Virus record (IMG/VR): IMGVR_UViG_3300029650_000190
Length of the DNA: 33,585 nt
Direction: 5' to 3' (one strand)
Source of the DNA: a virus
Lineage: Duplodnaviria; Heunggongvirae; Uroviricota; Caudoviricetes; Peduoviridae
A model generated the notes under the pieces. It did not search any database and was not told the DNA's origin. It saw only the letters and a program-made list of their open reading frames with translations. Each line of letters opens with the position of its first letter. The first letter of the stretch is position 1. Of this stretch, positions 10,462-13,215 are shown piece after piece. A program made the translations under genes and the position numbers.

Positions 10462-13215
10462 TTATACCTGCGCCACGTTATACCATGTCCCGTTAATGTA
10501 TTTCTGAACCGGCCTGTAATATACACCACCAATGTTATCGGCAGAGTTTGAGCCGGTATCCTGAACAATAATGCCGGAATATACACACCCGGACGGTGCC
10601 TGATGTGTCCATGTCATGCCATTGTTCGCAGGTTTGTATGTGGCAGCACCACCAAGCCGGATATCCCGGACATAGCGGGAATCAAAGTTACCGTAATCCG
10701 AGGGATTAACACGCCCCGTAATATTTATGGTTTTATTACTTTGAATACTTCCCGAGACAAAGCGCATAACATGGACGCTATTAGCATAAACATCCAGATT
10801 ACCATCACCATTTTGTTTAAAGCCCGTGTCATTATCACCCAAAACAATCGAATTACCGCCAAGAGCACTGGATGTTCCGATGCCCAGTGCACCATTCAAT
10901 TGACCACCAGATAACGACAGTGCACCGACATCTCCCGCTGTAGGTTTTCGCGTTGTGGTATAAAACTCAGACCAGTCAGCCTCGAATCCGTAACCATCAC
11001 GAGCAGAACGATAAAAAATACCGCCGTTCTTATAATTAACGCGGAACTGGGCTGCGGGACAACTTCCTTCACCGATATTAAAATGAAGAATTAACGTTGA
11101 TGCCCCACCAGTAGTTGCGTTATAGGCTCCGCTACTCCAGTTCCATCCAACGGCTTTATCATTCGCAACGGTGTCTCCTGTTTTTCCTGAAGCAAATGCA
11201 CCAATATTTTTCGGCGTCAGGTTAATATCTGATGTTCCATCAAACGAAACGTTATTAATTTTACGGGCTGTTTTCAGCTTTGTTGCTGTCGCCGCATTGC
11301 CGGACAGTTCACCAGAAAGGCCAGCACTGAATGTCTGTTTAGCGCCCCATGTCTGGGCTTCGTCGATAATTGGTACACGTCTTGTCGTGATCGTGCGGCT
11401 TCCCGGATTTCCTGAGATGCGCACCATAAAAAAGCGGTAGTTCGCTTTACTTACAGTGCTGCGCCATACATGCATTGAGCGCCCCGAACCAGAATCATCA
11501 CTCGGACCGACTGAGATGTTTATCAGGTTGCCATCAATGACGCCCCAGTCCATACCGTCGGGAATATTGGTCATGTTATCCAGCCGAACGGTTATCAGAC
11601 TGCCCGGCACAAAATCGTATGTCTGCCAGTCCAGGCTGGTGAGTTTTGCCACTGCGCCACCGATACCCAACTCTAACGGCAAAGAGTTTGAGTTATAAAT
11701 CTGTCGCCACTCCCCCCACGCGTTAAATGAGCCACCAAGAAACACTCGCTCATATAAACGGTCTTTTGTAGCTGCGCTGGTTCCTGTGGTCGTGTAACGT
11801 TGCAAAACATAGACACCATCCTTGCGCCTGATGACTTCCAGAAAACCAGACTGCCCCTGGATTGGGGTGTGGGTCGCTTTGCCTGTCACACTGTAAATAC
11901 CCGGAGACATCAAATCATCCAGGTCATCTTCGTAGAAGGTACTACTGGTCTGATAACCAATTTGGATCCAGTCTTCCCACTGTGGATTTTCTGCATCCCA
12001 TTTAGCTGTCAGGCCGCGAATATACATAGTCCCGTTACGGGTTGTATAACGCTGCGTGCGTCCATATAGCCCACCTTCGAAAATTTCCAGAATGCCCTGC
12101 GCGTCTCCTCCCTGCTCAGGGTAATGTCGTTCAAAAGAAGCTATTGCTGAACTGCTGTTTCTCCATAGACCTAAATGCTCTGCGCCACCGAGAGAGTTAA
12201 GGTCAATCGTTGTGCTTAGAGCTCGCGTTACAGCCTGAACATGGCGCCATGCTCCCCATGGTCCATCATTACCGTTCCATGTTCCAATGAGTTTGCGGGT
12301 ATACAAATTTCCGTCACGTGTGGTATAGCGTTGCGTGCCTGCAAAATTGCCGCCAGCAAAAACCTCAAGCACACCGACAGCATTATCTTCCGGGAAATTT
12401 TTCTCCAGTGTTGCGTTGGTGGATGTTGCTTTAGACCAGATACCTGAATAAGCCTTAACAGGGCCAAATGTATTCAGGTCGGCATCAACAGGCATTTCGC
12501 CATTGTTTTTCATAAACGTCAGGCTGGTAACGCCAACATTGTCCAGAAAAGCTGATTTATCCTGGATATCTGCACCATTCTGATTTTTCGCCAGACGTGA
12601 ATTTGCGTTGTCATTTGCTGCCTTGACCGCTTTTGGCGTTGCCGCCAATGACTCACTGGTGCTGTTTGTTGCACTGCTTAACTGAGTAAAACCTTTTTCT
12701 GTCAGCGTGGCGTCAGGATGGTGGCGGGACTGCTCATGCTCTGCGATTTTGTCATCGACGTAATCCTGCGTCGCCATCACTGTGCTGGCATCAATACTCA
12801 GCTCAACGGACGCCACGTTGCTGAGAATAATAACCATGCGGCAGGTCTGCGCACGTCCGGAGCCTTCAGCCAGTTCTGGCTTATAGCTTTCTGCCATGTT
12901 GGATACCGCAATCAGTGTTCCGGCATCGTCATACAGACCAAGCTCACGCATCCAGAAGCCGCCCACTTCGGGCGGTACAACCAGTTCAGCCACGATATAG
13001 TTTTTATTCTTGTTATCCACGCTGACTTTATTCAGAGCGTGACGCCAGACCTCATGCACCAGTTTCGTCTGACCGGCATCCGGCACCGGCAATTTGCCAT
13101 TACCGTCACCCACGGCCATTGCAGACAGGTTTACTTTTTTCCCGCCGGGGACAGTGGCGGCTGCCAGCTTTGCGGCTCCGGCAGTAGTGATAACGGTTTT
13201 AAATTTCGTGCTCAT
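10462..13215 (-). CDS. H: Long tail fiber protein H (917 aa; conserved P2-like N- and C-termini, divergent repeat-containing central region)
   Basis: N-terminus MSTKFKTVITTAGAAKLAAAT... and C-terminus ...NFDSRYVRDIRLGG...RPVQKYINGTWYNVAQV resemble P2 gpH; longer than the 669 aa I recall for P2 gpH, with three internal repeats carrying a QRYTT(R/T) core. Confidence 0.9.
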   Translation of the reverse strand: MSTKFKTVITTAGAAKLAAATVPGGKKVNLSAMAVGDGNGKLPVPDAGQTKLVHEVWRHALNKVSVDNKNKNYIVAELVVPPEVGGFWMRELGLYDDAGTLIAVSNMAESYKPELAEGSGRAQTCRMVIILSNVASVELSIDASTVMATQDYVDDKIAEHEQSRHHPDATLTEKGFTQLSSATNSTSESLAATPKAVKAANDNANSRLAKNQNGADIQDKSAFLDNVGVTSLTFMKNNGEMPVDADLNTFGPVKAYSGIWSKATSTNATLEKNFPEDNAVGVLEVFAGGNFAGTQRYTTRDGNLYTRKLIGTWNGNDGPWGAWRHVQAVTRALSTTIDLNSLGGAEHLGLWRNSSSAIASFERHYPEQGGDAQGILEIFEGGLYGRTQRYTTRNGTMYIRGLTAKWDAENPQWEDWIQIGYQTSSTFYEDDLDDLMSPGIYSVTGKATHTPIQGQSGFLEVIRRKDGVYVLQRYTTTGTSAATKDRLYERVFLGGSFNAWGEWRQIYNSNSLPLELGIGGAVAKLTSLDWQTYDFVPGSLITVRLDNMTNIPDGMDWGVIDGNLINISVGPSDDSGSGRSMHVWRSTVSKANYRFFMVRISGNPGSRTITTRRVPIIDEAQTWGAKQTFSAGLSGELSGNAATATKLKTARKINNVSFDGTSDINLTPKNIGAFASGKTGDTVANDKAVGWNWSSGAYNATTGGASTLILHFNIGEGSCPAAQFRVNYKNGGIFYRSARDGYGFEADWSEFYTTTRKPTAGDVGALSLSGGQLNGALGIGTSSALGGNSIVLGDNDTGFKQNGDGNLDVYANSVHVMRFVSGSIQSNKTINITGRVNPSDYGNFDSRYVRDIRLGGAATYKPANNGMTWTHQAPSGCVYSGIIVQDTGSNSADNIGGVYYRPVQKYINGTWYNVAQV

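Follow-up and report, generated by a model that had tools for sequence, protein, structure and literature searches.

Three tandem repeats in the tail fibre H of a P2-like prophage correspond to pyocin-type knob domains

The tail fibre gene H of a P2-like prophage raises two questions: what are the diverged repeats that stand in tandem in the middle of its product, each around a QRYTT core, and do they decide which hosts the phage infects? The gene was taken from the open reading frame listing at 10462..13215 on the minus strand of the window, the 33,585-nucleotide stretch of viral DNA analysed here, and encodes a protein of 917 aa. All features given below lie on the same strand. PHROG tail fibre families match H with E-values down to 3e-204. 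The window is a P2-like prophage adjoining fieF, in which H sits between gene I and gene G. The H locus is 100% identical to that of E. coli LR-58-2, where RefSeq annotates the genes in the order V W J I H G. Of 5426 complete E. coli genomes, 69 carry this particular allele. Directly downstream lies gpG, the tail fibre assembly chaperone (9931..10458), which is 74% identical to P2 gpG and whose counterpart in the LR-58-2 locus is annotated as “tail fiber assembly protein”. The RefSeq label of the 100% identical H protein is only “phage tail protein”. A neighbouring 345-aa protein gave no PADLOC match.

The QRYTT motif occurs exactly three times in H, at aa 295, 388 and 472, each time within the wider pattern G(V/I/F)LE(V/I)...QRYTT...Y.R...W..W. 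A preliminary description of this DNA had placed three divergent tandem repeats at positions 11700-12500, which correspond to aa 239-505. To assess their similarity, the Smith-Waterman scores of the unit pairs were compared with 1000 shuffles. Unit 1 against unit 2 scored 161, compared with 27 ± 5 for the shuffles (z = 26, 0/1000 as high). The scores of unit 1 against unit 3 (z = 5.5, 2/1000 as high) and unit 2 against unit 3 (z = 3.5, 10/1000 as high) were lower. An HMM derived from the units found exactly three full-length copies in H, and every homologue spanning the region also gave three or two such copies. The shuffle z-scores and the full-length HMM copies thus show that the repeats are real, and together with the motif scan they confirm the original observation. 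Detection did depend on the method, as whole-protein self-BLAST of H returned the identity match alone, whereas the segment-wise Smith-Waterman comparison and the unit HMM both recovered the repeats.

The units proved longer than the 55-60 aa first proposed. Each covers about 72-78 aa, and they follow one another at intervals of about 90 aa; the earlier ranges span just the conserved C-terminal core and leave out the first strand (G-I/L-W/Y-S/R). Unit 1 extends over aa 255-329 (12229..12453; unit HMM i-E 5e-41), unit 2 over aa 345-422 (11950..12183; i-E 1e-41) and unit 3 over aa 436-507 (11695..11910; i-E 1e-25), and these contain the first, second and third QRYTT respectively. The third unit is the most divergent and most variable of the three. 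At the DNA level, neither Tandem Repeats Finder nor find_repeats found a repeat with the unit period, and in codon alignments the units share 48-55% of their nucleotides. This indicates that the duplication is ancient, and a recent duplication or slippage as the origin of the array was rejected on the negative DNA repeat searches.

To what domain family do the units belong? No Pfam or NCBIfam model matches either the units or the domain that follows them (domain X), even at E-values of 1-10. A profile of 24 non-redundant units was used for a sequence search of the PDB. The Pa193 gp47 fibre (9b45) ranked first at E = 1.7e-4, followed by the R1 pyocin (6cl5, 0.004) and the R2 pyocin (6ct8, 0.0075; 6cl6, 0.011). 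These four top alignments cover the whole unit and fall on the region published as Knob2, although the E-values against the solved pyocin knobs are marginal (0.004-0.01). In the published fibre, Knob1 comprises residues 357-439 and Knob2 residues 445-528 (Buth et al. 2018, PMC6116203).

We also modelled aa 226-595 as a monomer using AF2, which gave a moderate-confidence prediction with a mean pLDDT of 68, rising to 70-82 over the knobs. The model shows a five-stranded antiparallel sheet in each unit. In a Foldseek search, all ten matches at E ≤ 1e-3 were phage or pyocin fibres, including the R1 pyocin at 3.4e-6. Many close homologues already carry the NCBI name ‘pyocin knob domain-containing protein’. 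Unit size and tandem arrangement, the predicted sheet, and similarity to solved knobs in both sequence and structure identify the units as tandem pyocin-type knob domains. Such bead-like blocks are already known from the tail fibres of phages and pyocins, and the module is not novel. It is also widespread: among 1.84 billion proteins, 925 representative clusters match the unit profile (E ≤ 1e-3) with 1-6 units each, two or three units being most frequent among the best 149 of the 925. Taken as a whole, the three repeats are probably knob domains arranged in tandem within the shaft, in a P2-like tail fibre that forms a trimer.

The domains on either side of the knobs were mapped with Pfam, phmmer and a comparison with P2 gpH (AAD03286), which has 669 aa, in line with the preliminary description. 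At the N-terminus, a P2-like tail-collar fibre domain for baseplate attachment occupies aa 1-151 (12763..13215; PF12571, E 3e-57) and is followed by a phage tail fibre repeat at aa 170-211 (12583..12708; PF03406, E 1.6e-20), which also matches Mu S residues 110-176. Over aa 1-207 H is 83% identical to the same residues of P2 gpH. By comparison, aa 208-767 gave no alignment to P2 gpH. The knobs are part of a replacement, in which about 560 unrelated residues stand in place of the central 265 aa of P2, rather than an insertion of repeats into P2's receptor-binding region. Neither the knob units nor domain X were found in P2 gpH. Beyond domain X (aa 508-650; 11266..11694), a Mu S'-like domain at aa 669-767 (10915..11211) was recognised by phmmer against residues 320-418 of PDB 8ju3, the Mu S' fibre (domain E 3e-48). 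Around the same residues there is a weak Pfam gp37_C match. Of the models for T4 gp37 C-terminal domains, PF12604 reached 22.9 bits against a gathering cut-off of 22.5 and PF20744 reached 17.7 bits against 21.7.

The distal shaft and C-terminal tip (aa 768-917; 10465..10914) match Mu S, 9cuy and P2 gpH. Within them, the tip at aa 844-917 matches Mu S (5yvq) residues 425-503 and residues 483-552 of the short tail fibre 9cuy. The last 150 aa of H share 39% identity with the end of P2 gpH, over an alignment with 68 gap positions, so that of the two ends described as P2-like, the N-terminus fits well while the C-terminus is so only distantly. Colinearity with P2 gpH is therefore lost through the centre and weak at the distal end. 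The description of a mosaic fibre holds, with a P2-like N-terminus, a stretch unrelated to P2, and a distal part like Mu S/S' and P2. The evidence establishes this domain order. The tip shares homology with the C-terminal domain of Mu S and with the end of P2 gpH, and gpG is encoded downstream, which points to the tip as the receptor end; on these sequence grounds, aa 844-917 are likely to be the primary receptor-binding, chaperone-dependent part of the fibre.

Domain X is predicted to be a fourth knob-like β domain, with a structured core at about aa 525-620 that is followed by a GNAATATKL..FDG linker motif. It accompanies the knob array in many fibres. A diverged fourth copy of the repeat was considered and rejected, as hhalign similarity was limited to overlapping residues. 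With a domain X profile, the sole match in the PDB was to a trailing GGTG..AAGAR linker motif. The model thus suggests a domain that is knob-like in fold only and not in sequence.

From the solved pyocin fibres, each unit would form a small five-stranded antiparallel β-sheet per chain. In the trimer, the three sheets of a unit would come together at the threefold axis, their variable loops facing outward, giving one globular bead. As the AF2 model is a monomer, we infer this trimeric arrangement. Three such beads, together with the fourth knob-like domain, would make up a beaded segment between the P2-type attachment part (aa 1-207) and the Mu S / P2-like distal part. The most likely role of the knobs is to nucleate trimerisation and folding and to provide length and stiffness. 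They may also make lateral contacts with glycans in an accessory role, as proposed for pyocin Knob2. Primary contact with the receptor would most probably fall to the tip, folded with the assistance of gpG.

We also compared H with five Peduovirus H proteins of this architecture other than that of L-413C. Among these relatives, identity is at least 95% over the N-terminus, domain X and aa 651-843 and 58-84% over the knobs, with knob 3 lowest at 58-61%. Two alleles of the tip exist, with identities of 100% or about 43-45%. The repeat region is therefore variable, as had been suggested, and is one of two hypervariable, recombining parts of H. Within the knobs, variation is modestly loop-biased (63% identical cells in loops against 75% in strands), and the loops of knob 3 are 43% identical. 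Nucleotide identity over the knob block is about 70%, with a saturated dS of 1.5-1.9 and dN/dS of about 0.12, compared with a dS of about 0.05 in the flanks. These values indicate old, purified alleles that were swapped in, and local positive selection on the knobs was accordingly rejected.

Sliding identity placed the breakpoints near domain borders, on the left at aa about 240-300 and on the right at aa about 520 or 620. Two knob 1-2 alleles and two knob 3 alleles were found in all four combinations. The tip is exchanged separately: phage 899 has identical knobs and the other tip, and P2SIDE7 the reverse. The array of the window is itself a mosaic of a P2SIDE7-like knob 1, an L-413C-like knob 2 and a distinct knob 3 with loop indels. 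Knob array and tip are thus two independently exchanged cassettes among P2-like relatives, and the array, although the product of an ancient duplication, is now moved by homologous recombination between P2-like phages.

Does such variation make the array a host-range determinant, as the preliminary description proposed? By analogy with other fibres, some host-range role for the knobs would be plausible. We consider it unlikely, however, that the array is the main determinant, with loops that bind an LPS or O-antigen sugar and cassette exchange that retargets the phage. Such a role would fit the finding that the array and the tip are the sole hypervariable parts of H among close relatives and assort independently, and that the loops, above all those of knob 3, vary more than the strands. 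It would also fit the pyocins, in which Knob2 is the most diverse region and a proposed LPS binder (Buth et al. 2018, PMC6116203), and K1F, in which a knob-like prism binds sialic acid. The selection analysis argues otherwise, as a dN/dS of about 0.12 with saturated dS reflects recombination of old purified alleles and not adaptive change. In addition, the array of T4-like gp37 lies at aa about 134-390, distant from the tip, and in H it is the C-terminal tip that is homologous to characterised receptor-binding ends. Host-range changes in other P2-like phages were likewise mapped to the C-terminal part of H; the H in the P88/pro147 host-range paper is of the P2 type without knobs. The proposal of the repeats as host-range determinants found no support here.

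The array could alternatively act as a second swappable specificity module, in which single knobs are traded between P2-like and T4-like coliphages and their loops either bind an LPS or O-antigen sugar or are sensed by host defences. We regard this as improbable. If true, host range or immune evasion would depend on which knob cassette is paired with which tip cassette.

It is very improbable that escape from host immunity sensing the folded fibre, and not receptor choice, drives knob diversity. According to a 2026 preprint, knob variation in the fibres of PB1-like Pseudomonas phages sets sensitivity to type II Thoeris, and cassette exchange in H would fit such a pressure. That case, however, concerns a different fibre family and not E. 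coli or P2-like phages, and the signature of purifying selection disfavours an arms race at the sequence level. Finally, a chance or low-complexity resemblance between units that are not homologous domains is scarcely credible, since the lone identity match in self-BLAST and the absent DNA-level repeat are outweighed by the z-scores against shuffles, by full-length HMM copies here and two or three in every region-spanning homologue, and by the same predicted five-strand fold in every unit.

Having identified the repeats as pyocin-type knobs, we note that the module is a known domain and the architecture a known fibre type, which leaves little novelty; the observation is correct but ordinary. 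Its main value lies in annotation, as a full domain map of three knobs, a fourth knob-like domain, a Mu S'-like domain and a tip. The independent exchange of knobs and tip, the breakpoints near domain borders and the presence of the array in gp37 also indicate places at which fibres can be cut and rejoined. This cassette picture opens no new question but is useful for host-range engineering of P2-like phages, and of pyocins retargeted with P2 or L-413C fibres.

Among known systems, P2 gpH shares with H the gene position between I and G, the P2-like N-terminus and the gpG chaperone (74%). In architecture, H has its counterpart in gpH of the Yersinia (plague) phage L-413C (NP_839867, 913 aa), which has the same domain order and carries knobs at the same positions (255-326, 345-422 and 438-511). 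The two proteins are 99-100% identical over the N-terminus and aa 651-843, while L-413C holds other cassette alleles in knob 1 (47% identical), knob 2 (82%), knob 3 (39%), domain X (76%) and the tip (45%). Domain-wise alignment with L-413C and five other Peduovirus H proteins shows that H fits the L-413C-type order and a length of about 910-920 aa. A published account presents L-413C gpH as a mosaic, with a foreign middle between P2-like ends of 207 aa (N-terminal) and 137 aa (C-terminal) (Garcia 2008, cited in PMC7460101); the description, as relayed by PMC7460101, does not mention knob domains. A survey of P2-like viruses does not treat the domains of H.

Beyond the P2-like phages, about 200 T4-like phages, among them RB32, RB9, HP3.1, Sf21 and JK23, carry the three-knob array with domain X in gp37, at 54-59% aa identity over the array. 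There it lies near the N-terminus, beside the knee and a long way from the tip that binds the receptor, and the remainder of the protein has no relation to P2 H. In T4 itself, gp34-gp37 contain neither knob units nor domain X. Further likenesses, from other phage families and hosts and with no overall colinearity with H, are the ‘beads’ of the Pa193 gp47 fibre from a Pseudomonas phage (PDB 9B45) and the tower domains of Staphylococcus phage receptor-binding proteins (5EFV, 9EUF, 5M9F).

The knobs of the R1 and R2 pyocins (6CL5, 6CL6, 6CU2) provide the reference for the units themselves. Pyocins and H both have tandem units of ~80 aa in a trimeric fibre (presumed trimeric in H), an antiparallel sheet of five to six strands (predicted in H) and the common motif pattern G.L.V...Q.Y...Y.R...W.PW. 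Variability in both is highest in two places, the knob region and the C-terminal domain. They differ in number, as H has three sequence-recognisable knobs and a fourth knob-like domain where the R1 and R2 pyocins have two knobs, and in what follows the knobs: the distal end of H is Mu S / P2-like, whereas that of the pyocins is a shaft with a lectin foot.

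The third of the tandem pyocin-type knob domains in the 917-aa tail fibre protein H is followed by a further domain, here called domain X (aa 508-650; window 11266-11694, minus strand), which carries the motif LGIG...DWQ.FDF...TN.P.G...G.KGSR.F.VRQ. This is a fibre module of wide occurrence, usually placed after knob arrays. Its predicted fold is knob-like, and profile comparison of domain X with the knobs gave no similarity. Pfam holds no model for the domain, and no sequence relative of it was found in the PDB. One representative homologue from the protein-cluster search, P0078 (1300 aa), contains a supermodule of three knobs plus domain X in duplicate, giving six knob units in all; the four-domain block can therefore itself be duplicated.

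Peduovirus H genes that are otherwise near-identical carry one of two sharply distinct alleles of the C-terminal tip (aa 844-917; window 10465-10686, minus strand), with amino-acid identities of either 100% or ~43-45% and a breakpoint at ~aa 841. Tip alleles assort independently of the knob alleles. A third divergent patch, short and lying in the PF03406 repeat region (aa 181-220; window 12556-12675, minus strand), shows 70-83% nucleotide identity to the Peduovirus relatives phage 899 and P2SIDE7; in the comparison with 569R9, this divergence is absent.

Beyond the fibre, one edge of the window falls within host gene fieF (1-921, minus strand), which adjoins ogr/D and marks the right end of the prophage, and the last ORF (336 aa; 32575-33585, plus strand) lies at the prophage's far end; essentially the whole prophage is therefore covered. 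Between the portal gene and the replication gene, at the site of the P2 old/tin accessory-gene hotspot, lies a very AT-rich island (GC ~29%) encoding a 735-aa AAA_13 ATPase (25364-27571, plus strand; PF13166, E 4e-103). A PADLOC search matched this protein to PDC-S06, a candidate defence system (E 3e-254), and it also gave a weak PrrC-like match.

Another low-GC island (~35%) contains the gene for a 345-aa protein, hypothetical in RefSeq, which is flanked by gpG and the sheath gene FI (8528-9565, minus strand). Judged by eye, the protein has hydrophobic segments, which are putative transmembrane helices, and a charged stretch in its central part. Its sole Pfam match, to UPF0242, is sub-threshold, and the PADLOC search returned no match. 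It could represent an accessory or defence gene, as yet uncharacterised; in P2, by comparison, the corresponding site is occupied by fun(Z).
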